From Cyanidioschyzon merolae (Eukaryota), in NCBI GenBank assembly GCA_000091205.1, contig AP006487.2: a DNA stretch of 64,000 nucleotides; one strand, 5' to 3'. The translations under genes and the position numbers were made by a program. Within the stretch, counting starts at the first letter, position 1; every line of letters begins with the position of its first letter. Of the stretch, positions 13,133-53,425 are shown piece by piece. The notes under the pieces were generated by a model. The model was not told where the DNA came from. It was given only the letters and a program-made list of their open reading frames with translations, and did not search any database.

Positions 13133-15190
13133 CTAGAACTCTGCAGAGTCCAAGCAGTCGTCCGCGTCAGACGCCATGAAGTCTGTATCGCACGCTGCGT
13201 GTGCGTCCAGGTCATTGACGCGGTGCATCCAACGATCGAGCGCGGTTTGTGCTGGCACGTGGGATTTCGGCGATGAGGTTACTTTTCCTCTGGATTCGCG
13301 GCTTTCAGTATTCTTCGTCTTCGATGCGGCACGGCGGCGCTGTAATTGCTCTAGATAAGCATCGTGTGTGGATGGTTTCCCTTTTTTAGACCAGGCCGCC
13401 TTGGGGAGTCGGCCGGCTCGGGATGGACGAGGCGAATCATCTGAGGCGCTCTGGGGAGCCTCCAGTGCTCGCGGTCTATTTTCGTCCTGCACAAAAATGC
13501 TGTCTCCTGCATAGAGCATGGTTGCCGCATCGGAAACGAGCCGGAGGGCGGCTCGCTGACGTTTGGTGCTCATTTCTCCTCGGCCGCTGCTAGTTTGGCG
13601 CAAAGTTGCCAAAGCTTTCTCGAGCGCAGGTGCGGCGGGTACCGCGTTGGCCGCATCCGATTTAGAAGCACGTTTGCGTGTTGGTTTGGTGGGCATGGGA
13701 TGCATCTCAAAGCGGACTCGTTTCGAGTGCCGCTTGTGGGTGTGCAGTGCCGTCGATGCTGTAGCTGCATCCTTGGATTCAGATTTCAGCTCACCGACTG
13801 TGCTGACGCTCTCCGTGCATGTGGTGTTGATAGATTCTTCTCCAGAGGCGCCCGGCGACAAAGGTTCTGCGGACTTGCGTTGAATCTTTTGCCGTCCGCG
13901 TTGTTCTGTGCCTGTCGTTGTTTCGCTCGCGCTTGGGGCTTGCTCCGCTCCCCTTCTGGGACGACGCTTATTCTGAGAAGCGCCTGAAGTTCGGCTCGCT
14001 GATGGTGAACTGGATGCAGGCATCATCTTGATCTTTCCTGATGCTGGATCTAAACTGCTTTGGAAGTGCTCGCGTGTTGCCGGGGTCATGCGATCATGCA
14101 GTGGCATCATCACAGACGCAGCCGCAGCGTCACCAGAGAATGGATCCTCTGTAGCGCGTTGCCCGCACTGGGAAGCGCTTGCTCTATTCGGGTCCCGCGA
14201 CGACGTTTTCCGCTTGTTGGCGGATGCAGCATGAGCCACTCGATGCGAGGAGGCAACCATGTTCTCGAATTCGCTGCGGGTGCCTTTTTCGCAGCTTTTG
14301 CTGTTGCTCGCTTCCGCGCTGTTTGAACTATCAACGGGTTGTTTGCGCGGACGCCCCCTTTTCCGTCTTGTCGGCGAGCGGAGCGGTAGGGTCGCAACCT
14401 CAGACCCAACTATAGCTGAGGCAGTTTGCAGAGACCCTGTTCGGCTTCTCGTTCCGCTCGCACCCAGGATGAGGTCGGGGTGGTGGAAACGGACGCGAAC
14501 AAGCTGCTCTAACAGTCGCCGCGCTTCGCGAGAGATCGATTGCGGTATCTTGCGCATCTGCTCTGCGGTATTGCTGGCCACGGGCCAGTCCGACGGGTTC
14601 TGCTTCGTGGCTGGGGTCTCGCCGGTGAGCTCCTCATCCACTACGAGCAGTGGGCCGCGCTGGTGCGAACGCGTTCGCGTCGCATGCGGCCTCGCTGCCC
14701 GCCGGCTTTCCAAGTCGACTTGATTCCGTACCTCCCGCCAGGAACGATAGCCTTCGATCAAAATCTCACGCCAGTTTTTCGGAAACGCTGTCCCTTTCCC
14801 ATCATTTACGCTTTGAAAGGCGCGGACGGTCGCAACAGGCCACCCGGCAGTGACCATGTGCGCCGCACGCATCCGGCCGCAGAGACGGTACCGAGAACCA
14901 GACTCGGTCTCGATGACTGTATATTCGCGCCCGTCTGTCTGCACGTCCACTACAGCCGAAGTTTGCCACAGCAACGATGCATCCAGAGGCGGTGCAGGAA
15001 CACCAGCGGCGTTCGATTCCGCCGCCGCTTCCCGCGTGCCCCACACTGTAAAATATGTGTTTTGTTTCTTTGCTGTCGTCGAGACATTCTCTCGATCTTC
15101 ATCTGAAATTCTATCGTCTTCAGCAAGGACAGGCTCAAGGAACCAGTCGTAGATCGGGGGAAACTCCATCACCACACGTCTACCAGGCAA
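13133..15190 (-). CDS. SANTA-domain protein; candidate KNL2/Mis18BP1-like CenH3-loading factor
   Basis: The N-terminus reads IYDWFLEPV...YFTVWGTRE...LWQTSAVVDVQTDGREYTVIETESGSRYRLCGRM...AFPKNW. It matches SANTA landmarks: LxDW, GxR, W-(S/T)S-x-I/V, TxSGSxYxLxG and (G)FPxxW. The remainder is S/K/R-rich and disordered. It includes RPSRAGRLPKAAW, which resembles the CENPC-k pattern RxSxRxxxxPxxxW. Confidence 0.45.
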   Translation of the reverse strand: MPGRRVVMEFPPIYDWFLEPVLAEDDRISDEDRENVSTTAKKQNTYFTVWGTREAAAESNAAGVPAPPLDASLLWQTSAVVDVQTDGREYTVIETESGSRYRLCGRMRAAHMVTAGWPVATVRAFQSVNDGKGTAFPKNWREILIEGYRSWREVRNQVDLESRRAARPHATRTRSHQRGPLLVVDEELTGETPATKQNPSDWPVASNTAEQMRKIPQSISREARRLLEQLVRVRFHHPDLILGASGTRSRTGSLQTASAIVGSEVATLPLRSPTRRKRGRPRKQPVDSSNSAEASNSKSCEKGTRSEFENMVASSHRVAHAASANKRKTSSRDPNRASASQCGQRATEDPFSGDAAAASVMMPLHDRMTPATREHFQSSLDPASGKIKMMPASSSPSASRTSGASQNKRRPRRGAEQAPSASETTTGTEQRGRQKIQRKSAEPLSPGASGEESINTTCTESVSTVGELKSESKDAATASTALHTHKRHSKRVRFEMHPMPTKPTRKRASKSDAANAVPAAPALEKALATLRQTSSGRGEMSTKRQRAALRLVSDAATMLYAGDSIFVQDENRPRALEAPQSASDDSPRPSRAGRLPKAAWSKKGKPSTHDAYLEQLQRRRAASKTKNTESRESRGKVTSSPKSHVPAQTALDRWMHRVNDLDAHAACDTDFMASDADDCLDSAEF

Positions 15191-16522: not shown

Positions 16523-17939
16523 ATGCTGTGTTCTCGTGGCACTGCCGTTCAGCGTCTTCGTGGACTAGCGGGACTCTTTCACAGCGTTCGTCCGCTCTCC
16601 AGCACGGGCAGCGCAGTGCAAGACGAGGATGTTTACATTCTTTCTTTCGCAAGAACGCCTATCGGCTCTTTCGGTGGCAAGCTTGCTCACTTGACAGCCG
16701 TTGAACTGGGGGTTATTGCGGTGAACGCTGCACTCGCGCGAGCTGCACGTCTGGAGCCGGACCTGGTCACGGACTGCTACCTGGGGCAGGTGCTTACAGC
16801 TGGCTGTGGCCAGTCGCCTGCACGTCAGGTTGCACTCCGAGCCAACTTGCCGGAAACGGTACGCTGCCTCACAGTCAATAAGGTGTGTGCGAGCGGCATG
16901 AAGGCAATCACTTTAGCGTATGATGCAATCCGGCTGGGACACGCTGAAATCGTTGTTGCCGGTGGCATGGAGAGCATGAGTAATGCACCCTTCTATCTAA
17001 TGGAAAACGAGCAGTTGTTGAGTCGGCGCAAGTATCTCATTCGAGGCCGCCTCGCTCGGGAGCTCGGCAACCGCGTGCTCTACGACGGACTGCTCCTGGA
17101 CGGGCTCCTGGACAGCTACAGCCGGCGGGGTTCGTTGAAAGGCGCATCAACGGCAGTTGGCGCTGAAGAAGACAACGCTGACGCAGGCTATCCCATGAGT
17201 TACTACGCGGATCGTTTGGCGTCGAACATGGGTATTCTGCGTGAAGAGCAGGACAACTTTGCCGTGCATAGCTACTCGCGCGCCGCCAAAGCGACTGCAC
17301 AGCAGCTTTTTGCCAAAGAGATCGTGCCCGTAGAGCTGCCTACCGAGTTTGCGACGCACTCATCCCCGGAACGCTTCTCGGACTCTAGTAGAACTACGTC
17401 TGGGGGCCCGGACACCGAAACCCATGGCACCATTGTGAGTCCCGAGCACCTTGCCCTGCTCAAGAGCGATGAAGAGCTCGAACGACTCGAGCAGATTGAT
17501 CGGATGCCGAGGCTGGCGCCGCTGTTTCCCGGCGCTCGCCCGTCGGGTGCCAAAGGTGGCCCAGAGGGACCCGCTGGCGGCACGATCACTGCAGGAAACG
17601 CTTCTAAGCTAAGCGACGGAGCAGCAGCGCTGGTCTTGGCCTCAGGACGAGCTGTTCGTCGATATAACTTGCTGCCGCTAGCGCGCATGCTTTCGCATGG
17701 TGATGCTGAGCAAGACCCGGAACGCTTTGCCACGACACCGGCGTTGGCGTTACCGCTCGCGCTCTCCAGGGCCGGCCTGAAGCTCTCGAACCTCGACTAC
17801 CTGGAGATCAATGAGGCCTTCGCCTGCGTCCCCATTATGGTACTAAGGTTGCTTGCCGCAACACATGCAGCAGAGGGAGCTTTTCTGGATCCAGTACGAG
17901 CGCGCGCCGCAGCTGCTGTGAGCGCAAGCGCTTCCAGTT

Positions 17940-17977
<38 letters not shown>

Positions 17978-18277
17978 CTTCCTCGTTCGTTGGGATCAGC
18001 AGGTACGGGAACCAGTGCTGGTGGCGTCTCTGCACCAACGGGTCTCAGCTCGAGTGCCGCTCTACCGGATATCATCAGCAGTGAGCACGTCAACGCCTGG
18101 GGTGGTGCGATTGCGCTCGGGCACCCATTGGGCTGCTCTGGAGCGCGCATTGTGGTGACCCTCACGAACATCCTGCGCAGTCGGACGGCTCGGTACGGTG
18201 CTGCAACGATCTGCAACGGCGGCGGTGGCGCGACTGCCCTAGTTCTCGAGCGGGTAGATATGACGAGCGGCGGTTGA
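16523..18277 (+). CDS. acetyl-CoA C-acetyltransferase (thiolase II) with low-complexity insertions
   Basis: The N-terminus has VYILSFARTPIGSFGGKL, the catalytic-Cys region is NKVCASGMKAI, and the C-terminus has GHPLGCSGARIV and CNGGGGATALVLE. At 584 aa it is about 190 aa longer than the usual ~395 aa. The excess comes from inserts, including poly-Ala encoded by (GCA)n near 17940-17975. Confidence 0.85.
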
Positions 18278-24497: not shown

Positions 24498-25235
24498 ATG
24501 TTTCCTGCTCCAGGTTCTAGCGCGGGGGGTCAGTCAATGGAGGCGTCCCTTGACGAGGCAGGACTTCCGCGCAAGACTGTGCTAGCCTGCGTTCAGGCCG
24601 TTCTCCAAGAGGGCGGCCTGTCGTCAAGCGCTGAACAGCAGCCTCACAGCGCGCCTTCCGTGAGCTCAAGCCCGTCGCGAGTAGAACATGCGATGGTAAC
24701 AGAGGGGCGACCGCGTGATGCGATAACCGTACAGAACGGCGCTCGTGAGCACGTCAAGCGAGAAGCCTCCACAGAGGAAACGCAACTGGGCGCCACGTCT
24801 CCTGCGACGCTGCAACTCACAGAGGAAACAGCGTGCTCCAACATGGACGCTGAGTGCTCGAAGGACGAGAGTTCACCCCAGAATGGTCCAGAGCCAGCCC
24901 TAACGCTACACCCGGACGCACGTGACCTCATCTGCGCCTGTGCGAACACGTTCGTTCGGTCAATTGCAGTTGAGGCGAATAAGGCAAAGGCCAGAGACCA
25001 GAAACGGACAATCTTCTCGAAACATATCCTAGCCGCCTTGGAGCAGATGGGCCTTGAAGCTTACGTCCCAGTATTGCAGCCACTGCTGGAACGTGTGGAG
25101 GATGAGCAGGTGGAACGCCAACGGCGAAAAACTGGTCGTGCTCGCTTTGAACACACAGGTTTGAGCATAGAGGAGCTCAAAAGACAACAAGCGGAACTAC
25201 TAGCTGCTGCTCGAGAGCAAGCTCTGTGGCCTTGA
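24498..25235 (+). CDS. DR1: NC2-beta / Dr1 histone-fold transcription regulator with a large internal insertion
   Basis: GLPRKTVLACVQAVLQ is alpha1 (compare Dr1 LPRAAINKMIKETLP). ARDLICACANTFVRSIAVEANKAKARDQKRTIFSKHILAALEQMGLEAYVPVLQPLLE is alpha2-alpha3 (compare Dr1 ARELVVNCCTEFIHLISSEANEICNKSEKKTISPEHVIQALESLGFGSYISEVKEVLQ). The C-terminus RARFEHTGLSIEELKRQQAELLAAAREQAL matches Dr1 RLENLGIPEEELLRQQQELFAKARQQQAEL. About 100 aa of S/E/T-rich sequence is inserted between alpha1 and alpha2. Confidence 0.7.
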   Translation: MFPAPGSSAGGQSMEASLDEAGLPRKTVLACVQAVLQEGGLSSSAEQQPHSAPSVSSSPSRVEHAMVTEGRPRDAITVQNGAREHVKREASTEETQLGATSPATLQLTEETACSNMDAECSKDESSPQNGPEPALTLHPDARDLICACANTFVRSIAVEANKAKARDQKRTIFSKHILAALEQMGLEAYVPVLQPLLERVEDEQVERQRRKTGRARFEHTGLSIEELKRQQAELLAAAREQALWP

Positions 25236-29955: not shown

Positions 29956-31785
29956 GAGAGCATCAGGCGTTTATGCACCTACGGGAATGAATCGGGCCTG
30001 GAGGCATGCGTTCAACTGGTACACGGAATGGTGACCGAACGCCGAAACACCGACACTAGTACTTTTTGGAGGGAATCGCTTAAAGAAAACCTGGCGACTG
30101 GTAGTAGTTTCATTGTAAAACGATATGGAAGCTGCTCGCCTGTGTCGATACTTGACTCGTGCTAGAAAGATGCATGCTATCGATGAAATCGCATGGGCTT
30201 TCATGCCAAACTAGTGTGCACTTCTCTTTCTCCAGAGCGTACAGTATTGATTCTACAACGCTGGTACTCAACCTCATGGTATCGTTGAAACGGTACGGAT
30301 TCACGTCACCATTCACGCGTCCTCGTGCTCGGAAAGCATCGACCTCTTATCGGTTTGTTGGTAGGCACGTTGCCTTGGTCGTCGCCCAGCAGATGCGAGA
30401 ACCTTCTCCAGTTCGCATTCGTGGCATCTCCCTATCGCACACTTTTTCGAATGCTAAAAGGGCTTGGTTGTTCGTCAGTGCGAATGAATTGATCACTGGT
30501 GTGCCTCAACTCGAAAGTCTACATCGTTCACAGAGGCTGCGTTCGAATCGACTCGGAAACGGCAAAGAACAGCGCGATCCAATCTGTGTTTCATTGGTCT
30601 AGAGGATCAAAGCCAGCACCAACATGGAAAGGGAATGCTTCGATAGATTCAAACCACTTACAACAACGCAACGTTCATGATCTTTGGTGGCATTTAGCGA
30701 GCACTGCTGTTTCGCCATGCGATCGGAAACGACAGCGTCGATGACTGCCTTTATCGTCGGAGTCTAACGATATGTAATCCATCCTGAGGGTGAGCGTGTC
30801 ACGGTGCAATTGTGACAGAGACACTTGAAGGACGGGCCAGGGAGAAAGCAGGGTCCCTGAGCTATTTAACAGGTCTACAAAAAGCAGGCGCACAGACCCG
30901 AACTCCTGTGCAGCGTCGCAAAACCGACCTAGACGAGAACCGGGTTCTCCTTATTCAAACAAGTCTTGGAGCAGGAAACACTTCCTCGCTCCATAGCCTG
31001 AATATCTGCAGCAAACCGAGCTGTGGAAACTGGATTCGTGAGATACTCGACTGACACTTAACCCATAGAGCAGAGGAGAGGGCTCTCGGGGAGAGCCCGC
31101 ATCCACCGCAGAGTCCACGTGTCCCCCTTTCCCGACGACTGAATTATAGTGCGTTTCAGTACTTCCGACCTCGAATTTATGGTTCGCTGCGTTTCGAACA
31201 GGTGATGCTGAGCAGCACCACAAGAACAGGCATCTCGAGATCGCTCTACGGTGTCTAGACTGCAGTCAACGCAAACCTACCAGATCGGAAACAAAGAAAC
31301 CCAATTTCGGGAGAGCAGCACCGGGTCAACGATACCAGCCTCCGTATACGATAACATTACCGCTATCGTTCTGTCTGGCTAGTGCTAGCGAGTAGCGAAT
31401 GCACGTAGGCATGCATACTAGGGGTACTGCACGTCATGGAGTTGCCTGCAGCGCTTCCGCATACCCTCAGCGACTGCGCGTTCGTGCCTGTGCATGCCGA
31501 CATTGGATGCATTCGCAGTTGGATCCAAGTTTAACAAGACTGCATCTCGGTGGATACAGACCAGAGCGACGACTCGGCCGCAGACGAGTCACCGCTGCTG
31601 CCCAAGGCATCTGCTAGACGCTCAGGTGCTCTCACGGGTATCCCCGTGTACTCCAGACAAGTCTAGATCGCGTTCGATACACTAGCAGCCTGCTCCCCGT
31701 ACATCTGCTGCAAAGTGGCAACGACAAGAGGCGCAAGCGTCGACACCATCGCTCTTCCATCGAGCCGAATGTGTTCCTGTCCGAC

Positions 31786-34581
31786 TCAGTCACCCACGAG
31801 ATCCTTAATCCAGGCGTCCCAGCAGCCCGGTGGTGCCGCTGCCGTTGTTGTTGTTGTTGTTGTAGTCGTTGTCGTTGTCGTGGATCCCGGAAATGCCGAG
31901 GGCGCTACCGACCCTGCATCCAGGGCAGGCATCGAGTGGTGGCATTGTGAATCGCCTCCATGCCGTTTCTCGTGTGCTCCGTCGCTGGGCTCGGGACCAT
32001 TGAGCAGCGGCGATACACTCGATGGTGTCGAGTTCTCTGTCTGCAGAGACGGTGTGCCGGTGCATGTGCCGGTGCCGGTCTCGCTGGGGCCTCCTCCAAA
32101 CTCCGGTCCTTCGCTAGATGATGCAGCGCGGCTAGCGCACGCGTTCTCAGCAACCGCTGCTGGTACGACTCCAGTCCCAAGGATGCTTCCTGGCGTGATT
32201 GTGGCCGCAGCCGAAGCCGCAGCAGCTGCGTGGGGCGAAAGCGGCGATATGCGCGCATAGCTCCATGGGCCCCAGTCTGCTTGAGGCTGCTCCAAGAACG
32301 TTCCTCTCATTGGGGCCAGGTAAAACGAGTGCCCGAACGGGTCTAGGTGCTGATCAGATTCATCATTGCTGGGAGTACCAAGAACAGAGCAACCAGCTGC
32401 ACCGGTAGGCGCGACACACAGCGAGCTGCTGAATCCTCCAGGGTGCTGCTCGCAGACCTCTCCGCCTGGAATCTCCAGCGGCGGGAGCAGCCTCTGGCGA
32501 GCGCGTACACCCCGCAAGGCATCTTGCGTTGCTATCGCTCGAGACGGTGACCTTGTCGCTGCGAACATGAGCGGTGTCGGTGTCGGTATCGGTGTCGGCG
32601 GTACTGCTGTAGCGCACTGCTCCATTGGGGTAGAGGGCGCTCGGCTCAAAGCTCGTGTCGTTTGTGGTGCGCATGTCGATGCTACCGACAACGAAGTCGA
32701 TGCTGATGTTGACGACGACGACGACGACGACGATGGCGGCGGCGGCGGCGGTACATGCAAGGCATCCGTTGTCCTCGTTGCCGACAGGAAGCGTAGCAGC
32801 TCTGCAACGACCTCGTTGTGGCCATGCTGCGCAGCCAGGTGAACCGCAGTCTGTCCGTTCATGTTCGCTGCGTGCGCATTGACGGCGGGCAGTACACCAG
32901 CGCCCCGAATCCAAGCTGCAACCTGCAGCAAAAGGCGCACGCTTTCCGTCTTACCGTACTTGGCTGCGATCATAAGCGGCGTGTTCCCATCCTGTGCATC
33001 GGGCATGTCAAGCACATCGGCGGCATCCCAGAGCGGTACGCCCTGTGCCACCGGTGGTAAACCCAAGCACGCGCGCACGTCTGTGACCGTGATGAGTTCG
33101 CGCAGCACTTCGACATGGCCATAGCGTGCAGCGAAAGTCGCCGCCGTCCACCCTCGAGTGGAAGTTCTGCGCCTAGGATCGACACCGTCCCACAACGAGA
33201 GCAAATGGCGTACACATTTCGCGTGCCCGTGCTGCGCTGCGAGCATGAGCGCGGTGGCGCCCTCACCACATGGTGCATCGAGCACTGCCTGAAGCCACCG
33301 CTTTGCTGTGATAGTGACTGTCCCATTGGAGTCTGTGCCTGTCGTAAGGAGTGCAGATACCCTATGTTTCGCGAATTCGACCAGGAGCGCAACCACAGCC
33401 TCTTGACCGTGCTTCGCCGCGACGTGAATCGGCGTCATCCGCTTCCAATCAGCGGCAACGAGGTCCGCTTCGATTCGGACGAGCTCTTCGCCACCGTTCT
33501 TCAGCGCCGATTCGAGAATGGTCTGCACAACCTGAATATGGCCAAAGCGGCATGCGTAGTGCAGCGGAGTTGAGTTCTTCTTCCGAGACGGCGACACTGG
33601 GCCTTGAATGGCGGTCAGGGACGAGTAATTCGTGGTCGCCGAAGTTGGCGTGCTGATCGTGGACAACGGTGACGCCAGAGGGCATGTGCCTGCGCCCGCC
33701 GTTGCCAGCGGGCTTGGTTGCACTGCGCACACCAACCCTGGCGCCAGCGCTTGCGCAGCGGCAGGCGCGCACTTCACATACTGGAGCCCAGCGGAGACGC
33801 ACGCAGTGGTGCCGCTTTCGCTGCCGGTGTGCTCGCCTCGGAACGTGAACGCTGGGTCAGTTCGCTCATCGATGGAGCATAGAGGCGGCGTTATCTCGGC
33901 GGGCGCAGTTGCTCCACAGCGACTCTGTCTGAGCCCGGCGATATGCCCCGCGAACGTCTGCTCGTTCCGTGTACTGACGGCAGCGGCGCTTGCAAACGCG
34001 GGCGCATTTGGGTTCGGTGCTCCCGTTGCCTTCGCCGACGCTCCCTGGATGGCTGCATTCGCGTACGGAGTATGAACGTCCGCAGGGATTCCCGATACCG
34101 TTGCCGACGCCGGCGGTAGGCAGTTCGTCTCGAAAGCGCGGTTTCGGAGTGAACTTGCTTGAAACGCCTCTGCGACCCGAGAGGCACGCAGGCCGCCGAC
34201 CCGAGCACATCCAGCCGAACGCTCAGCGCCCGCTCCCGGCAATCTACGAGCCACGCTGGGCAAGGGCTTGCGTTCTGCTTGGGACCTATGTATGGCATCT
34301 TTGTGAAATCTCTGCTCCTCGTTTGAAGCTAGCGATTGCTCTGACCCGAGAGCATTCCGGACCGAGAAGTGACCATTGATATAGCTGCCAGTGCTGCTGG
34401 GTATACGCTCCGTGCTTTGCGTTCCCATCCGAGGCTCGCCCGATGGTCGCCGTTCCAGACGCTCTGACGATACGGGCTTTGCGCCCAGCACACCCGGAGT
34501 TCCAGCTCCGTGCTCCATTGTGCAATCCAATGTTCCCAGATGCAATCTATATGCTAGCAACGAAGAAGTAGTAGGCTTCAA
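31786..34581 (-). CDS. ankyrin-repeat protein with poly-Thr/poly-Ser/poly-Asp low-complexity tracts
   Basis: There are multiple 33-aa ANK repeats: TPLHYACRFGHIQVVQTIL, TPIHVAAKHGQEAVVALLV, TALMLAAQHGHAKCVRHLL, TPLMIAAKYGKTESVRLLL and TAVHLAAQHGHNEVVAELL. TTTTTTTTTTTTT and SSSSSSSSS tracts are encoded by the (GTT)n/(GAC)n microsatellites at about 31844-31888 and 32711-32751. Confidence 0.8.
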   Translation of the reverse strand: MKPTTSSLLAYRLHLGTLDCTMEHGAGTPGVLGAKPVSSERLERRPSGEPRMGTQSTERIPSSTGSYINGHFSVRNALGSEQSLASNEEQRFHKDAIHRSQAERKPLPSVARRLPGAGAERSAGCARVGGLRASRVAEAFQASSLRNRAFETNCLPPASATVSGIPADVHTPYANAAIQGASAKATGAPNPNAPAFASAAAVSTRNEQTFAGHIAGLRQSRCGATAPAEITPPLCSIDERTDPAFTFRGEHTGSESGTTACVSAGLQYVKCAPAAAQALAPGLVCAVQPSPLATAGAGTCPLASPLSTISTPTSATTNYSSLTAIQGPVSPSRKKNSTPLHYACRFGHIQVVQTILESALKNGGEELVRIEADLVAADWKRMTPIHVAAKHGQEAVVALLVEFAKHRVSALLTTGTDSNGTVTITAKRWLQAVLDAPCGEGATALMLAAQHGHAKCVRHLLSLWDGVDPRRRTSTRGWTAATFAARYGHVEVLRELITVTDVRACLGLPPVAQGVPLWDAADVLDMPDAQDGNTPLMIAAKYGKTESVRLLLQVAAWIRGAGVLPAVNAHAANMNGQTAVHLAAQHGHNEVVAELLRFLSATRTTDALHVPPPPPPSSSSSSSSTSASTSLSVASTCAPQTTRALSRAPSTPMEQCATAVPPTPIPTPTPLMFAATRSPSRAIATQDALRGVRARQRLLPPLEIPGGEVCEQHPGGFSSSLCVAPTGAAGCSVLGTPSNDESDQHLDPFGHSFYLAPMRGTFLEQPQADWGPWSYARISPLSPHAAAAASAAATITPGSILGTGVVPAAVAENACASRAASSSEGPEFGGGPSETGTGTCTGTPSLQTENSTPSSVSPLLNGPEPSDGAHEKRHGGDSQCHHSMPALDAGSVAPSAFPGSTTTTTTTTTTTTTAAAPPGCWDAWIKDLVGD

Positions 34582-36297
34582 AGAAGCGATGTCAACCGTC
34601 TCTTACCAGTAAGAGTCGGACAAAGCACTCAGCACAAAACGAAGCAGAACGAAACGGTGGCACTTGCGCTGCAGCGTGCCAGAGTGCGTGTCCAGCTGTC
34701 AGACACCGTCGTCACTTACGCGTCCGCTCTGAAAGCTGGACACGAACTTGCCCAAGGGCCTTGGCGAGAACGCGTCTTCGTTCCAAAAGCCTACTTTCGT
34801 ATGCCCAGTTTCCGAGGCTCCTTCACTATAAGAGAGCAAAGTCACAACCAAAGTCGTTGATTTGTTGCAACTTTCCCGCAACGTACCAAACTCGCGACTC
34901 TGCGTCTTGGTTGCGCTTTCACCAACTCGATTCCAGTAGCTGGAGGCTAGTGTCCACAAAAAGCACAAGTCCGACGTGAAACTCGTTCTACGCAGGTAGA
35001 GATGCTCCCAGAGGTCCGCACCGTCGTCGAGTCACCCCGAGGGCGTTGTCGGGTTTCGCGAACGAAGGAATATGTCGCAGTAGCAACGAGTTCCTTTCGA
35101 ATCCGAAACCTACGCCTCGTCAGTGTGTTTGGCCCGTCGATATCAAGTATGCGTTTCCCCGTATATGATATGACGTAACGGCACAATTGTCTGTTACTCG
35201 AAGAGCGAGCGACGCACGGACCGATGCGCGGGAAAAACCGACGGAACGGATGCGTGCACCGCCGTGACGCAGCGTCGATTTCTCCTTCGACGACACGCAT
35301 TCGATTTTGTGACACTTTAATGTAACGCTCGCGGGAGCGCGCGCGGCCACCCCGCGGGGATTTCGATTACATAGAGGTTATAGAGTTTCATGTCAATTGT
35401 GTTCCACTGCCAGGTGCAAGTACGCAACTGGTGTTTCGCGGTTCATAGAAGATGTATTCGGAGTGCGTTCAGTTCAAGAAATAAATACGCTAGAGGCAAT
35501 GGTTTCGACATGGGGTTCGTGGATCCCAGAGGCCCCGTATTGCAGGTTTCGACAAAAAAAGTGAAAAAATTCCTCTTCTTACGGAGCGTCGAGCAAAGAA
35601 GAGCGATTGACGAAGAAGCAGAAGGGGCGAACTGGGCGAGAAGAGGTATTTTCCGGACGGTGCGAAAATGAGACTCATGTCATACATAGGACGCTAGTCT
35701 TACGAATACTTGCATCGGTGAGTTCAACCAGAGGCAATGAACGCAATGAGTTCGTGAACCGGGAATCTCACACCGTCATTAAAATCAGAAAATGTGCGGT
35801 GCTGAACATGAGATTCGAGGAGCTGACGCGATCGAAGTAACTTGGGCAGCCTCTGGTACTCGACGTGTCCAGAAATATTCTGAAACCGATAAAAGTCGGC
35901 CGGTCAACGAAGGCGGGGAGGCGTATGCGCGTGCGTATACATACATAGCCTCCGTGGTCGTAGAACGTCTATTGGTTTCACGAAACATCGTATAAATGGA
36001 GCAGGTGCACTTGGCTAACTCTCGCGTCTACCCTAAAGATTTAGGCTGTTTCCAATGTCATCGACACCAGGCTTTGTGGAGGTTTTCTGAGACTGCTCCC
36101 TTTTTCTTGGACGTTGATACAGTTTTTTATACGCTGCTCCGTCCTTTCATCCAGTTTCCCTCCTGATAGTCGAAGGCTGTCAACAGCTGCGTTCGAGTTC
36201 GGACGTGAAGTTTCGGGCACTTATCTATCTATGCCGTTCATGCAGAGGCCGAAGTCGTCATCTACATTTCGCTCGCCATTTTGATCTTCTTTGTATG

Positions 36298-36324
36298 CAG
36301 CAGCAGCAGCAGCAGCAGCAGCAG
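36298..36324. repeat. (CAG)9 microsatellite
   Basis: Direct read: cagcagcagcagcagcagcagcagcag. It sits in an ORF-poor block. Confidence 0.9.
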
Positions 36325-38338
36325 TGCACCGTCTCCAGCGGCGACACTTGGGTGCCGTCGGGTGCTTCTATAGGCGCACCACCATCCAGCCTCCTCCAGA
36401 CGCTGCCTCGTGTCGCGTCAAACTTGCTTCATCGCAAGGTGTACGCCCTTGAAGGACACAGGGGCGCTCCACTCGATGCCCCCCTCCGTTTCGACGCCTG
36501 GTGTCGTACACTGTGGTCGCGGCCTTCCTCTTGGCGATTCGTTCTGCGACTGTTCTGTCTGCTGGACACGCAAGAACGTACTGTTGCATCCAATAAGATA
36601 TTTTGTGGAAAGCGATCTTGTCCTTGATAAAACACGAACCAGAAGGAGAATTCAGACTGGACAACACGTCGAGGAATTCCGACCCGGCTACGCTTGCACC
36701 ATTGCGAGCGAGAGATACAAAAAAACTCAGACCGGAGTCCAAGCGCCTGTCCCGTGCAAACAGAAGCGACGTCAGCCACTGAGCACAGATCCCCAAAGAG
36801 GTATCATGCAGATTTCGAATCCAGATTCGTCGATGGCCACGACGAGAGGAGCAATCATCTATCAAACCGAAATTATTACAGGACATGGTATGTTCAGTGA
36901 TCTTTTCGCATGAGCTTGCGAAAAATTCGCCAACGGTCAACGTCGAGATTTTCTCCTCGTCAGTTCAGCAGCGCGAATCGCTGCGTACGATGGTTGCCTT
37001 TAAACATAAAGATCGAGAACGTGAAGAATATGTGATTTGAACCTGCTACACACAAGCAAAGAAGGATCGTGGATGCTTGCACGTCTGCATTGCATACGGA
37101 TATCGATTCTTTCTTGCGTTCCCATGTTCGACTGCGTCGCGAATCCTCTTCATTCCAGTGGTGTCACGCCTTGCAGCGACAATGCTTCCAAGGCGCTACA
37201 TCGAAAAAAAATAACGACCGAGAATCCTGAATCGACGTATGAATCCGCATCCCCTTATGGTTGCTCTTCTAGTATCGAGTCTGTACATCTCAAAAACATG
37301 CTCGGAAAATATCGACATGCCGGCACTGGCCAAGCAGTTCAGTATTCCATTCTAGTGTGACATGGGCGTAGCGTTCGAACGTTTCCGCATTGATCGACGG
37401 AAATGACATACTCAGTAGAGATCCCGGCTGGCAGGGTGATTTTCCGGGATTCGCGCCCATATTCCACCATTCCTCGCGCAAACCCCAGGTTCCGACATCC
37501 TCCTCCTAAACGCCCGTCGGAGACAATAGCCGTTTCGTAAGTTCCGGCCTGCACTGAGCCTGCCAAGAGCGTTTGCAATAATCCCTATGGCACCGGTGCG
37601 TACCTGGCACGACGAGAGCGCGGCTTTGGGAAACCACTGAAGGCGTCGGCTTGAGGCATGGTTCACCCGACACGAGGTCAGATCTCATAGACATTCCGAA
37701 GTCCAGCGGACTTGCTATGCAGGCGTGCCTTAAAGGCAAGACCCGTTCGAGTTACATGGCTTACAGGAGGAATCCTGGGGGCTCGTCTCCCCTTCACAAC
37801 CCTCTGAGGAAAGCGTCGTCGTTTCGCAAAATAGCGGTTTTGCTCCGAACCCGCGCGTGAGAAGGTGCACGAATCGCTGAACTCGTGTGCTCTTCCGTTT
37901 CGTGCCAAATTTCGCCTAAAAGGTACGGAGCACACGAAAGCGCACGCTCTTGGTGAACGTACCACCCGGCTCGATGGCCGACCCGGGGGATTCAGGTCAA
38001 AATGATCAGACTTGCAACGTAAAAAATCCGTTCAAGCTGATTCCACCTCAAGACGACTCCACTCTAAATCATCCATACCATAGCATAGAATTTGCTCTCG
38101 AGCCGGCAACCAACGGCATCCAAATGTTTTTCTGAGGAAGCACCACGACACAGCAAACCGGGAAGCGGAACACGCGCGGCAACGTCGGCGCCACCGGACA
38201 CACCATCATCTGCGCCACTACATAACTGCATATTTGTGCTGCTACTTGTTCAGTTCAAGCTGGTGCATTTTTTTGAAAAAGTGATCCTAGTCGACGTGAA
38301 CAAATACATATTTCCTTCCAACATACTACGAACAAGGT

Positions 38339-48748: not shown

Positions 48749-51700
48749 TAGTTACACGCCCGCAATTCAGAATACACGGAGTCAACAGATCGGCTCCACC
48801 CAAGAAAACTGTGCAAAAGATACAAAACTCTTGTCCAGGAAGCGAGTACGCCCCGCGAAAGCTCCCGGAACAAAAAAGCGCTTCAGAGGGCACGGAGCTA
48901 CCGCGCACCCTAGTCTGTGCGGTAGCAAACTTTGCGTCGTGTACGCTCTATGCTCGCCAGTCCGCTGCCTGAATAGACACAAGACAACACACCAGAGCAG
49001 TGCGTGCGGTACACGCGCACCAAAAAAAAACGACGAATGACGTTACACTCAAAGCTCGTGGAGTCTCTGCCAGAAGCGCTCCTAACGAGCGCTGCCGGAC
49101 TCGCGTGCCCGTTGCACGTCACCACCCTCAGATGCATTATTGTACATGATTGTACTAAATGGAACCGTTTCTAAGAATCTCCTGGTGGCGGCAAGCGCAC
49201 TGCGCCTCTCGTGATCGGGTTCGTGACGCGCGCACGCAGCATCTCGCCACCGGAGTCGGCAGGCGTCGTTGACGGACAGCGCGCGTGTCACGCAAGCGCC
49301 TGGCGTCGCTCCGGCACGCAGCGCGGCTGAACGGAGGCACGCAGGATGTCGCCACTGGCGTCGCTGCGGCACGCGATGCCCATGAGGCGCAGCCAGGTCG
49401 CAGTGCGCGCTAGCTGACGGGCTCAATAGGACTCTTGCACGCGCATGCAAGCGGAACCGGCGCTATGGGCTGTGCACGAGCAAGGCAGATCACGGTCGTG
49501 ACATGTGTACAGGAGCAGGATTCGAGCTTCTGCATCGGGCCTGGACATTGCCTGTGCAAACGCGAACGGAAAAGATGTCGACGCTGTAGGCGGCGTTTCG
49601 TGTGCCAGCTGCCGACGACGCATGGCGCACGGTAATGCGCAGGCATGTCGGGAAAAACTGGAACAGGCCCTGTAACTCGGGTATACATTCTAAAGTTTGG
49701 GTATCTTCCTGCGATTGTCAATTGCAGGTGTTGCAGGATTTTCTGTCACTGATTCTTTACCTCTCTCTTGTCTCCGCCCGTATATACGACAGTCGATACT
49801 GACCAGCCAGCTTCGATGTCAGGATTCGAAGGGTGTTGACGGTGGCACGCAAGTGCCGAGTTCACGGCGTCCGGCTGTTGCCCAGGCATTTCATGCACTA
49901 GTGAAAGTTACGATCTAGGCTTCGGTTGCCGAATTCACCTTCCATGTATACAGGCCTGGTGCGTTCTTTTGGAGCGATGACGTACCCGGTTGTGATCGGG
50001 TGTTCAGTGATGTCTAACGCGCCTCTTCCTCCGAGTGCTGCCCTGTGGCGCGCAAACGCTTGCTTTATTGCCTGATACTCGTACTTGGCGGGTACGAAAG
50101 GCCCCTTTGGATGCCGTCCTCAGTTTCCTCGCCAGCCGCGGCACCCTGCGATGACGGCATTCTTGTGCGCGATTCCATCGGCGCGTACGATGCCCGTTGC
50201 ACACACCAAAAGCGGCTGCAGCCCACTTGGTGGAGGATTTGTGAAACGTGGTGTTTTCCATGATGAAACAAGTGCCGGACGGCGAAGGCTCGTCGGAGAA
50301 CAAATCGAGAGCTCATGATCCGTGTACACTACCCTGGTGCAAATTGGTGAAGAACGATGCACTGGAAGCGATCGCTGCGATGACTCATATCCGAGTTTCA
50401 GACATTTTCGCATGCAAACCGGAGGAGTGCGAGCCTCAGGGAACATGTCACATGACGCACCCCGCACTGGGTTCGAATCCCGTTTTATCGATGTTCACAC
50501 CGAGAGGACGTGTCTCCTTTACAAACGAGATCAACGATTTGACGCGACAGGTCCAGTGAACCTTTGGGATGCGCTGGTGAACAAAGCGTCAAGAGACGAC
50601 ATCGATGATCTTGCTGTTTTACTCCTGCCACGCAAATCGCTTCGCCCACGATCAGCCTTGAAACAGAGAGGTCGATAACGTGAAGTATACGTGATTTGAA
50701 CATTCTGCACATGAAGAGAGGAGAGGAGTCGATGCTTGTACGTACGCTTTGAATGATCATATTTGTTATGTTGTATGCCCGTATTCAAGGGAGTCATGAA
50801 TCATGGCAATTCCGATGACGCTAAGAATTCCAGTGTTCAAGCGTCGGAGGAGCCTTTCCAAAACGAAGACCGAGACACCCGAACCTGCGTTTGAGTCCAA
50901 AAAAACCCGGACTGCTGCACTGGTACTGTCGAAGATGTACTTGTACAAAAGAATCAAAAGCCAAGAACACACCATGCAGTTCAGCGTTCTATTCTAAACT
51001 GAGACAAGCGTAGATTCGATTTGTGCGAGATAATCCTTTCGTTCTGGATAGAATGCATTCCTGCAGGAAGACCGCGGAAAGCACCACGATTCAGTCAATC
51101 TGGACACCATGCTCTCCAGCTGACTTTTGATTTACGGTCCTAGTCGTTTCAAACACCAGGTCGGGACGACTCCGGGCAGCTCGATACCCCCGTGAAAGCG
51201 CAAGCGTAGCGGCCAGAGAACGCTGGAGCGCAGGCGTGTTCTGACCCAGGGCGGGCAGCAGCGTCTCGAGACGGTGCAGAGCGGCGAGCAGCGCAGGCGC
51301 TCGACGACCCCAACAAGGAGATAGCGTCGCCGTTCCGTTTCTGTGCGATGTCTGCGGTAGCGCTATAGGATTCATTGCCGGCGCCCGCGCGACAGAATGC
51401 ACGGAGCGTGTTCCCAAAAGTAAAGCAGAGTTCGGAACCGGTGAAACTCGGATGTATGGTGCGGAATAATGGGTGCTCTCCCGAACGGAAGCGACACTCT
51501 GGCAGTCGGGTGTCTCTTTGTTCGTGAGAACGATACGACAACTATACGTGCCTCGTGAAACAAAAAATATTTCACGAACTTGTCGGGTACATGAATATGC
51601 CCACGCGCAGACGCGTCCCAGCATTGTTTTACCGACCGACGGCTATCGGCTTCAGTTTCTAATTGAACACTTCAACTCTGGGAAGCAGCCCCACAAAGTT

Positions 51701-52513
51701 GGATCGCAACAGCTTCTCGGGCATCGTCTTCCGCACCGCACATCATCTGATACGGAGAGCGTTGTTAAAGTCCCGGTTACCGAATTCCATTCGTCAATTG
51801 CCTCTGGTTGAACGCACCAATGCAAGGATTCCTACAATTCGAACCAACTGAACAACTACAGACTCTTCATCGCTCCCTCAGGGAAACACAGTTTCTCGCC
51901 TATCTCCCATGTTCTTCACCTGCTTTTCCTCGCTCGATAGTAGCCGAAACGAGGATTCTCTCGTTCTTTTCCAGCAGCCAGCGATGCAGGCCTTCCAGAA
52001 TCCTCGACTTGCAAGTCCAAGCCTTTCCCTTTGATTTTTGTTTCTTCAATATGAACGCAATTCGAACGCGTCAGCTATAAAGGCGCCAAACAGCATGTGC
52101 GCACACGCTCCCGGGGGCGAAGCTCTGGTGCGATGAAAGCCCTGCGCAAAACTCGCGGATCGGTGCGGCGCATCGCCCTGCAGGCGCGATTGCTGTCGCT
52201 TTCGGCAGGCTCGTCACACGATAGGACGTATGAAACGACCAGAATATCCGAGATGAAGTATAGGTAATGCAACTTGGGAATAGGGGGTTGATGGATACCT
52301 CACCGCGCACTGAAACAAACACACATAAAAAAGTAAGAGAAGAAAAATGCGCATAATCGGAGAACGCTGGCCTAGGGAAACGTTTTGTGCATGAAAAAAA
52401 TCGCCCTGCAGGTCCATGACATCAATCCTTCCTTTTTATAAACCTTTAGGTATATAGCGGCCACAGGGTTCGCAAACGCTCCAGCGGCGCGCCAATTCAA
52501 ATCCGATCGTGTA

Positions 52514-53425
52514 ATGGTGCGCGCAGCACGCGTTCGCTTACCAGCTACCAGGGGGCAGGCAGTGCCGCACGAGCACGCTTGCGGTGAGCAGGTCTCCATG
52601 GTGCGCGTGTTTGGGAACCCCGTCGGGGGTGCGCATCAATACCGTCAGACTCAGGCGTTGAACCGCGATGAGTCTCTTAGAGAACAGCTACAAAGAACGA
52701 CTGTGGCGGAGCAGGATGAAAACATTGAGCCAGAACCTGAACGCAGTTCACCGGACGAGGCACAGTCGCGCCTCAAGTCGCTGCTGGGGAGCGTCGCACG
52801 CTCCAGTTCACTGCTCGGTCGACGCGTGGCCGGTCCGCCCGGCTCGTCGTTATCGAATCTAGCGGAGACGAGGCTTCTCACGGAAGAAGCGGCAAACAGG
52901 CCTACTGGCGCGGGACGCAGCGAACGCGTCTCAGCCGGCAGAGCGGAGCCGTTGCCACCGGGACCCACCACCGCCACTACCAACGCTGATGCGAATACAG
53001 TTCAGCGAGGGCTATCTGTGGCGAGCGCGTTTCCACCTCGAGCACCGCTGCAAGCCGCCGGTTTCACTGTCGCGCGACGGACGACACGGTCTGGTGTACA
53101 ACGCAAGCACCGCTTCCGGCCCGGATCACGTGCTATCATGGAGATTCGCAAGTTCCAACGCTCCACGGAGTTGCTGCTCCGCCGTTTACCGTTCGCGCGC
53201 CTTGTACGAGAGATTTGTGAGCGTTTGTTTGGAAGCTCCGCGTTCCGCTGGCAGGCAAGTGCGCTCGAGGCATTGCAAACCGCAGCAGAGGATTATCTCA
53301 TACACCTCTTCGAAGACAGCAATCTTTGTGCAATCCACGCTCGCCGAGTGACCATCATGCCGCGAGATATCGCCCTTGCACGAAGAATTCGTGGCTATCA
53401 TAGCGATCCGCACGGGTACCTCTGA
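52514..53425 (+). CDS. CENH3: divergent histone H3 variant; candidate centromeric H3 (CenH3/CENP-A)
   Basis: The C-terminal histone fold reads [95 protein letters not shown]. Canonical H3 reads [39 protein letters not shown]...[30 protein letters not shown]. The roughly 200-aa N-terminus is not H3-like (no ARTKQTARK). Loop1 and alpha2 are divergent. The true start Met is probably internal. Confidence 0.6.

Follow-up and report, generated by a model that had tools for sequence, protein, structure and literature searches.

A divergent SANTA-domain protein of Cyanidioschyzon merolae and its candidacy as a cyanidiophycean KNL2

No component of the machinery that loads CENP-A/CENH3 is harder to trace than KNL2/M18BP1, and a survey by Zuo et al. 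(2022) based on BLAST retrieved KNL2 from none of five algae, a red alga included (PMC9210943). The main text of that survey is followed here, although its Supplementary Table S1 seems to list one KNL2 per alga. Zuo et al. left open whether algal KNL2 was lost or had diverged past BLAST recognition, and suspected divergence. The same question is raised by CME086C, a gene in a 64,000-nucleotide stretch (the window) of chromosome 5 of the red alga Cyanidioschyzon merolae 10D (528,682 bp). A preliminary description of the window had proposed that the product is a KNL2/M18BP1 orthologue with an N-terminal SANTA domain and a CENPC-k-like motif in its tail. Profile searches support the SANTA domain, and the KNL2 assignment that rests on it remains the favored reading, while the resemblance to CENPC-k is no better than chance.

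The preliminary description used an open reading frame of 685 amino acids (13133..15190, minus strand) that opens at TTG, a start of the bacterial code. For a eukaryote the start codon is the ATG at 15169; it yields 678 amino acids and leaves 15170-15190 as a noncoding TTG extension. The 678-residue product is identical to BAM79311.1, XP_005535597.1 and UniProt M1UPH4 (CYME_CME086C, C. merolae 10D). It is labeled a hypothetical protein (uncharacterized in the UniProt entry), and a full-text literature search for 'CME086C' found no paper. All strings on which the preliminary description relied (IYDW, VWGTR, LWQTSAVV, TVIETESGSRYRLCG, AFPKNW and RPSRAGRLPKAAW) are present in the translation.

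SANTA homology of the N-terminus

The N-terminus is homologous to SANTA by sequence profile and by motif, with a predicted fold as further support. Comparison of profiles with hhalign matches the N-termini of the cyanidiophycean orthologues to five animal SANTA domains with a probability of 98.1 % (expectation value [E] 1.3e-13) and to 13 animal and plant SANTA domains with the same probability (E 8.8e-14). Inclusion of the full Cyanidium N-terminus raises the latter to 98.5 % (E 2e-15). A hidden Markov model (HMM) built only from the 13 canonical domains gives CME086C 28.7 bits (p about 6e-11) and two of its orthologues 25.6 and 25.4 bits. The best match of the N-terminus among PDB sequences is the SANTA construct of human M18BP1 (9r6h).

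A HMMER profile of the cyanidiophyte N-termini (residues 1-180), run exhaustively against 1.84 billion (1.84e9) representative proteins, retrieves seven matches only. Three full-length orthologues (P0001, P0002 and P0019) lead, followed by a 'mis18-binding protein 1-like' of Haliotis (P0020; E 7e-6, query residues 25-167 aligned) and a Solemya homologue of mis18-binding protein 1-like (P0022; E 4e-5). The remaining two are a repeat protein (P0021) and a truncated orthologue from Cyanidium (P0023). The Haliotis and Solemya proteins are the sole SANTA-bearing nonorthologues among the seven. In each of them two SANTA domains match strongly (1e-36 to 1e-39), accompanied by a Myb domain and an entirely typical CENPC-k motif. 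Together with the hhalign and HMM results, this return to M18BP1 bears out the proposed domain and supports the view that the N-terminus is a real but strongly diverged SANTA domain.

The residues that define SANTA domains are retained. When CME086C is aligned with the 13 canonical domains, the invariant and near-invariant columns are all kept (W9, G44, G91, G109, F118, F129, P130 and W133). Published SANTA motifs are VxLxDW at the N-terminal end and GFxxxxxxxFxxGFPxxW (GFx7Fx2GFPxxW) at the C-terminal end. The former, which falls outside the local alignment made by hhalign, reads PPIYDW in the C. merolae protein and TCLFDW in that of Cyanidium; all four orthologues share D8 and W9, and W9 aligns with the invariant tryptophan of the canonical domains. 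The latter appears as GWPVATVRAF, then QSVNDGKGT, then AFPKNW, and is broken by a seven-residue insertion; G109, F118, F129, P130 and W133 occupy its invariant columns. W68 and Q69 align with W413 and H414 of human M18BP1, an exposed pair that is indispensable both for recruitment to centromeres and for the loading of CENP-A (PMC12953894); a SANTA domain of Haliotis likewise has WQ at these positions.

The domain carries four lineage-specific insertions (residues 16-38, about 50-60, 76-79 and 120-126), because of which BLAST and Pfam nearly miss it. A structure model from the orthologues alone is unusable (pLDDT [predicted local distance difference test] 48.6). A model from an 11-sequence alignment that includes canonical SANTA domains reaches a pLDDT of 70 (76-90 over residues 70-160) and consists of a beta-core followed by three helices, the last of them long. 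The published SANTA fold (9r6h) has two packed beta-sheets, then three helices of which the third is long. Since the input alignment contained SANTA sequences, the predicted fold is supportive and not independent. A Foldseek search of the model against the PDB gives no match with E below 1.

Orthologues were found by several routes. A word-indexed protein search with full-length CME086C yields only 54 Cyanidioschyzon sequences, in a cluster at 98 %, and a single orthologue at 40 %, P0002, from a fourth cyanidiophyte (locus L001) in which synteny with the GPN GTPase, PX, Cdc6 and PDCD2 genes is kept. The exhaustive search added the orthologues of Cyanidiococcus yangmingshanensis (P0019; full length P0092) and Cyanidium caldarium (P0023; full length P0098). 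A metagenome scan returned only Cyanidioschyzon strains (97-99 % identity). Word-indexed searches gave no matches with a single mollusc SANTA domain and plant fragments only with the merged alignment.

One of the seven matches, P0021 (957 amino acids; NCBI/ENA, outside the window), consists in part of at least nine tandem repeats of about 37 residues (GWPEWKDEDGQFSMERFRAFSSMNNGKGLPKQDEVKKVL). Within the cyanidiophyte profile, these repeats align with nothing but the helical C-terminal part (GWP..TVRAFQ.VNNGKG; E 2.5e-5), and P0021 has no Pfam SANTA match. The repeat could be built from a SANTA submotif or could have arisen by convergence.

The tail, expression and the assignment to KNL2

The remainder of CME086C is a long, mostly disordered tail that is rich in serine, alanine and arginine. 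Its conserved parts are a single invariant AT-hook and short blocks, four or five in number (Table 1). Block 2 (SREARRLLEQLVRVRFHHPD...RSPTRRKRGRPRKQP) is the best conserved stretch outside the SANTA domain and matches no known family. The R-G-R-P core is well established as an AT-hook. The canonical form RKRGRPRK occurs once in C. merolae, twice each in Cyanidiococcus and P0002, and six times in Cyanidium; Pfam AT_hook matches weakly in the Cyanidiococcus protein (P0092). Block 4 of C. merolae reads LEKALATLR...KQRAALRLVS...GDSIFVQDEN, and two further elements, SKRVRFE (residues 482-488) and LDRWMHR (residues 644-650), are also conserved in the four-species alignment. Beyond SANTA, CME086C has no other Pfam match, and a profile of the full-length orthologues finds nothing among PDB sequences.

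CME086C is most simply read as a cyanidiophycean member of the KNL2/M18BP1 family that combines a SANTA domain with a disordered AT-hook tail and is devoid of a SANT/Myb domain and of a recognizable CENPC-k motif, a reading to which a probability of about 0.7 is assigned. It is the simplest reading because SANTA is so far known from no proteins other than KNL2/M18BP1. One study states that the domain 'may be unique to M18BP1' (PMC12953894). According to the literature, all KNL2 proteins contain it. CENPC-k is found in alphaKNL2, gammaKNL2 and the KNL2 of noneutherian animals but is absent in eutherians and betaKNL2, and is thus not obligatory.

Several observations weigh against this assignment. 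Pfam SANTA (PF09133) is the only Pfam match on CME086C, but it covers only profile positions 45-91 and its 18.9 bits (E 0.0022) lie below the gathering threshold of 21 bits, an operational cut-off and not a biological feature; the four insertions account for the shortfall. Other orthologue sequences score 19.7, 20.2 and 21.0 bits, so that four of the five scanned are matched, and P0002 has no match at E <= 0.01. The profile comparisons align residues 60-143 only, that is, the C-terminal two thirds of the domain; for the N-terminal third, the support comes from the motifs IYDW and VWG as aligned by MAFFT. No SANT/Myb domain is detected with Pfam even at E <= 10, and none of the accessory features of KNL2 (CENPC-k, SANT/Myb, the Mis18-binding region that precedes SANTA) is found in CME086C. 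Finally, the expression peak of the gene is small (2-4.5 fold), and in replicate 1 the level at 0-4 h is equally high (Table 2).

The expression data come from published arrays that cover the light-dark cycle. In both replicates, CME086C mRNA reaches a modest local maximum at 16 h. CENH3 (CME099C) peaks at 16-20 h, MCM2 at 12-16 h and the condensin core subunit C at 20 h. The CENH3 signal at C. merolae centromeres intensifies in S phase. The covariation of CME086C and CENH3 mRNA is weak and in the expected direction. The preliminary description had also pointed to the presence of the CenH3 gene in the same window. CME099C does lie there, with 63 % identity to H3 in a tblastn search, a two-residue insertion in loop 1 and a Pfam Histone score of 127 bits, but 37 kb and roughly twelve genes separate it from CME086C, and nothing gives this linkage significance. 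Neither a Mis18/Yippee gene nor a CENP-C gene is present within the 64-kb window.

The start of CME099C is ambiguous. The open reading frame in the window begins at an upstream ATG and encodes 303 amino acids versus 275 in the NCBI model. Relatives from metagenomic Cyanidioschyzon have 303, 287 and 275 amino acids, and the 303-residue form occurs in metagenome sources only.

It is unlikely, though the best placed of the alternatives, that CME086C is a chromatin protein of KNL2 descent that no longer takes part in CENH3 deposition, or never did, for example a general architectural factor of AT-rich DNA or chromatin, or a transcription factor. The missing CENPC-k motif, Myb domain and Mis18-binding region would fit such a protein, as would the AT-hooks, which are typical of general chromatin proteins and vary in number from one to six between species, and an mRNA that is present with low amplitude throughout the day-night cycle. 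However, SANTA is so far known only from M18BP1/KNL2, the functionally critical tryptophan (W68) is kept, the local expression maximum coincides with that of CENH3, and plant betaKNL2, which lacks CENPC-k, is nevertheless centromeric and needed for CENH3 loading.

Less probable still is the full model of the preliminary description, in which CME086C is a protein of the alphaKNL2 type and RPSRAGRLPKAAW is a working degenerate CENPC-k motif whose arginine anchor would contact the H2A-H2B acidic patch and whose tryptophan would contact the C-terminal tail of CENH3. The SRAGRL of C. merolae does match the SRSGRL core of plant and animal motifs. With a model built from eight plant KNL2 sequences (supplement of PMC9210943) and two mollusc proteins, however, the CENPC-k HMM gives CME086C -1.3 bits, aligned over SRAGRL only, versus 46-49 bits for real KNL2 proteins, and 6 % of composition-matched shuffles reach the same score. 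An ungapped matrix scores the site at -0.9 versus 58-60 for true motifs and places the best site of the protein elsewhere (score 4.2, P = 0.125); with this matrix, all four orthologues fail to score better than shuffles of their own sequence. The functional core of CENPC motifs is RxxxxPxxWW (Kato et al.), and a regular-expression search finds no strict instance of it. In an ungapped register, R581, R584, P589 and W593 do have the spacing of this core, but alanine takes the place of the aromatic residue before the tryptophan and the downstream R/N/Q are missing. A relaxed pattern (R-x4-P-x3-W) is present in C. merolae alone of the orthologues and in 5.8 % of shuffles; with an extra upstream arginine (R..R.{4}P.{3}W) the frequency drops to 0.6 %, for a pattern that was chosen post hoc.

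Conservation likewise argues against a working motif. The four-species alignment places the segment between two conserved blocks and shows no invariant residue in it. An arginine nine residues before the tryptophan is found in three of the four orthologues, but the proline is missing in P0002 and Cyanidiococcus, and Cyanidium has a 10-residue deletion at this place. No other part of the tail of genuine KNL2 proteins is as well conserved as CENPC-k, whereas this segment is among the least conserved parts of the C-terminal half. The resemblance to CENPC-k is therefore not supported by the sequence comparisons, and of the proposed KNL2 candidate the SANTA homology stands and the CENPC-k part does not. 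A degenerate contact made by basic residues and the tryptophan is improbable.

The CENPC-k HMM also responds weakly to a separate conserved segment of block 4 (ALATLRxxxSG) in C. merolae and P0002, where 'TLRQTSSGR' and 'TLRDSRSG' align with 'GLKTSRSGR' (-2.0 and 0.7 bits). It is without the P...W half of the motif, and the likeness is probably coincidental.

The idea that the N-terminus is an unrelated small domain in which a few hydrophobic motifs match SANTA by chance, which could appeal to the Pfam scores of CME086C and P0002, the empty Foldseek search and the unconfident model from a shallow alignment, is close to refuted by the hhalign result, the reciprocal search that lands on M18BP1 among 1.84e9 proteins, the SANTA HMM and the conservation of every invariant column.

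Coordinates and other features of the window

Table 1. Positions of CME086C, its parts and other features within the window
Feature	Coordinates	Strand	Residues	Description
CME086C	13133..15169	-		Intron-less, complete gene of 678 codons plus stop; product matches BAM79311.1 exactly
Divergent SANTA domain	14735..15157	-	5-145	IYDW, FTVWG, LWQTS, ESGSRYRLCG, GWPVATVRAF...AFPKNW
Lineage-specific insertion	15056..15124	-	16-38	Acidic, low complexity; between SANTA beta-strands 1 and 2; 13-domain alignment, pLDDT < 50
Conserved block 2	14336..14533	-	213-278	SREARRLLEQLVRVRFHHPD...LG...G.E......SP.RR.RGRPRK.P.; four-species alignment
AT-hook	14336..14371	-	267-278	TRRKRGRPRKQP; invariant in 4/4 species; regular-expression count
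Conserved block 4	13472..13624	-	516-566	LEKALATLR..SG......KQRAALRLVS.AA..LY.GDSIFV.DEN; four-species alignment
Block 4 segment with CENPC-k HMM match	13595-13624		516-525	ALATLRxxxSG
Claimed CENPC-k motif	13391..13429	-	581-593	RPSRAGRLPKAAW; SRxGRL shared with true motif; neither significant nor conserved
Conserved block 5	13325..13363	-	603-615	DAYLEQLQRRRAA; four-species alignment; DAYLEQLQRRR = 603-613
CME099C	52514..53425	+	190-293 (histone fold)	CenH3-type, annotated 'histone H3 variant'; long divergent N-tail
Thiolase (CME087C)	16523-18277	+		Acetyl-CoA acetyltransferase reading frame, 584 amino acids
Histone-fold protein	24498-25235	+		245 amino acids
Poly-V reading	31769-32260			Opposite an ankyrin-repeat gene
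Poly-Q run	36295-36330			At the start of an unannotated reading frame
Gene-poor stretch	34600-38300			About 3.7 kb
Gene-poor stretch	48800-52500			About 3.7 kb

Table 2. Array signals over the light-dark cycle
Gene	Replicate	0 h	4 h	8 h	12 h	16 h	20 h	24 h
CME086C	1	957	939	337	527	1099	693	315
CME086C	2	903	1177	640	1369	2424	1238	534
CENH3 (CME099C)	1	88	72	155	299	817	815	280
CENH3 (CME099C)	2	132	107	200	465	1214	675	267
MCM2 (CMD025C)	1	235	201	2758	16948	31031	6825	1350
MCM2 (CMD025C)	2	362	268	5171	39008	30494	7258	1685
Condensin core subunit C (CME029C)	1	595	225	136	420	4160	9443	2759

Neighbors of CME086C with exact database matches include genes for a Cdc6-like protein, a GPN-loop GTPase, phosphoenolpyruvate carboxylase, RPC2 and the H3 variant (the 275-residue annotated model). 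The thiolase reading frame has no exact protein match, unlike these neighbors, which suggests that the annotated start or gene model of CME087C differs from the reading frame in the window. The histone-fold protein carries a CBFD_NFYB_HMF domain (30 bits) after a long low-complexity N-terminus and is a candidate NF-Y, NC2, Pol epsilon or CENP-type histone fold. The poly-V reading reflects a trinucleotide repeat inside the ankyrin-repeat gene.

The centromeres of C. merolae are 2-3 kb long and, at 48 % GC, less GC-rich than the genome as a whole (55 % on average). The window contains no clear 2-3 kb block with a GC content close to 48 %. The two gene-poor stretches stand out in an otherwise compact genome, and GC minima of about 49 %, over 1 kb, occur at 36.5-37.5 kb and at a few other sites in the window.

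Relation to known KNL2 proteins and CENH3 loading

The closest comparison is with the direct orthologue of Cyanidium caldarium (KAK4537345.1, UniRef100_A0AAV9IZ52), at 30-40 % identity. The order of its blocks is the same as in CME086C (SANTA, LRFHHPD block, AT-hook, KQRAA.RLV..GDS.F block, DAYL.QLQRRR), but it has six AT-hooks instead of one and is without the segment that holds the claimed CENPC-k motif. UniRef already names it 'SANTA domain-containing protein', whereas the C. merolae entry is uncharacterized, and this automatic label tempers the novelty of the domain.

Among plant proteins, betaKNL2 and deltaKNL2 (of the type of Arabidopsis At1g58210) resemble CME086C in that they belong to Archaeplastida, possess SANTA near the N-terminus and no SANT/Myb domain, and have a missing or truncated CENPC-k motif (RRLRSGKV/I in deltaKNL2). 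The SANT/Myb domain is restricted to animals and is likewise absent from plant KNL2 in general. However, betaKNL2 is short (281 versus 678 amino acids) and without the part needed for DNA interaction (PMC9210943), while the AT-hook(s) and the conserved tail blocks of CME086C have no counterpart there. The SANTA domain of CME086C carries four insertions. The identity between the SANTA domain of CME086C and those of plants is only about 20 %. Plant alphaKNL2 (Arabidopsis At5g02520) shares with CME086C an N-terminal SANTA domain, a long disordered tail with a capacity for DNA binding (predicted in the case of CME086C) and candidacy as a CENH3 loading factor. Its targeting relies on a CENPC-k motif that is strongly conserved and has basic DNA-binding regions at its flanks; CME086C has no significant CENPC-k, and its DNA binding would come from canonical AT-hooks. 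Animal M18BP1/KNL-2 proteins (human Q6P0N0; Haliotis XP_067680694.1) contain a Mis18-/CENP-C-binding region ahead of SANTA, a SANT/Myb domain and often CENPC-k, none of which is found in CME086C. Molluscs have two SANTA domains; the one of CME086C starts at residue 5.

If CME086C behaves like animal and plant KNL2, its SANTA surface near W68 may dock on a ligand at the centromere or inner kinetochore, and the protein may license or recruit the deposition of CENH3. Plant alphaKNL2 requires sequence-unspecific DNA-binding regions beside its targeting motif to reach centromeres (PMC11879092). The AT-hook(s) of CME086C would provide such sequence-unspecific affinity for DNA and could help to keep the protein on the short, relatively AT-rich centromeres of C. 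merolae. Their contribution to centromere binding is plausible because of this need of alphaKNL2 and the lower GC content of the centromeres. Taken together, these steps would describe a stripped-down licensing system in which a KNL2 made of SANTA and AT-hook finds regional centromeres that are short and mildly AT-rich, and loads CENH3 there at about the time of S phase. This remains a tentative proposal, rather less probable than the assignment of CME086C to the KNL2 family.

CME086C is a concrete case of KNL2 divergence past BLAST recognition, and it addresses the algal gap left by the earlier survey. Since red algae lie inside Archaeplastida, it fills in the range of the CENH3 licensing pathway within the plant lineage, and does not extend that range as the preliminary description had suggested. 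The surprise is limited because KNL2 is common to animals and plants and is hence expected to be ancient. At least one class of red algae keeps a SANTA protein, and an insertion-tolerant SANTA profile is now usable to find further cases. With 20 mapped centromeres of 2-3 kb, a CENH3 antibody, homologous recombination and inducible knock-down, C. merolae is well suited to testing licensing by a protein of SANTA and AT-hook. If the stripped-down system exists, KNL2 would only have seemed to be absent from algae, because insertions in the SANTA domain hid it from detection.

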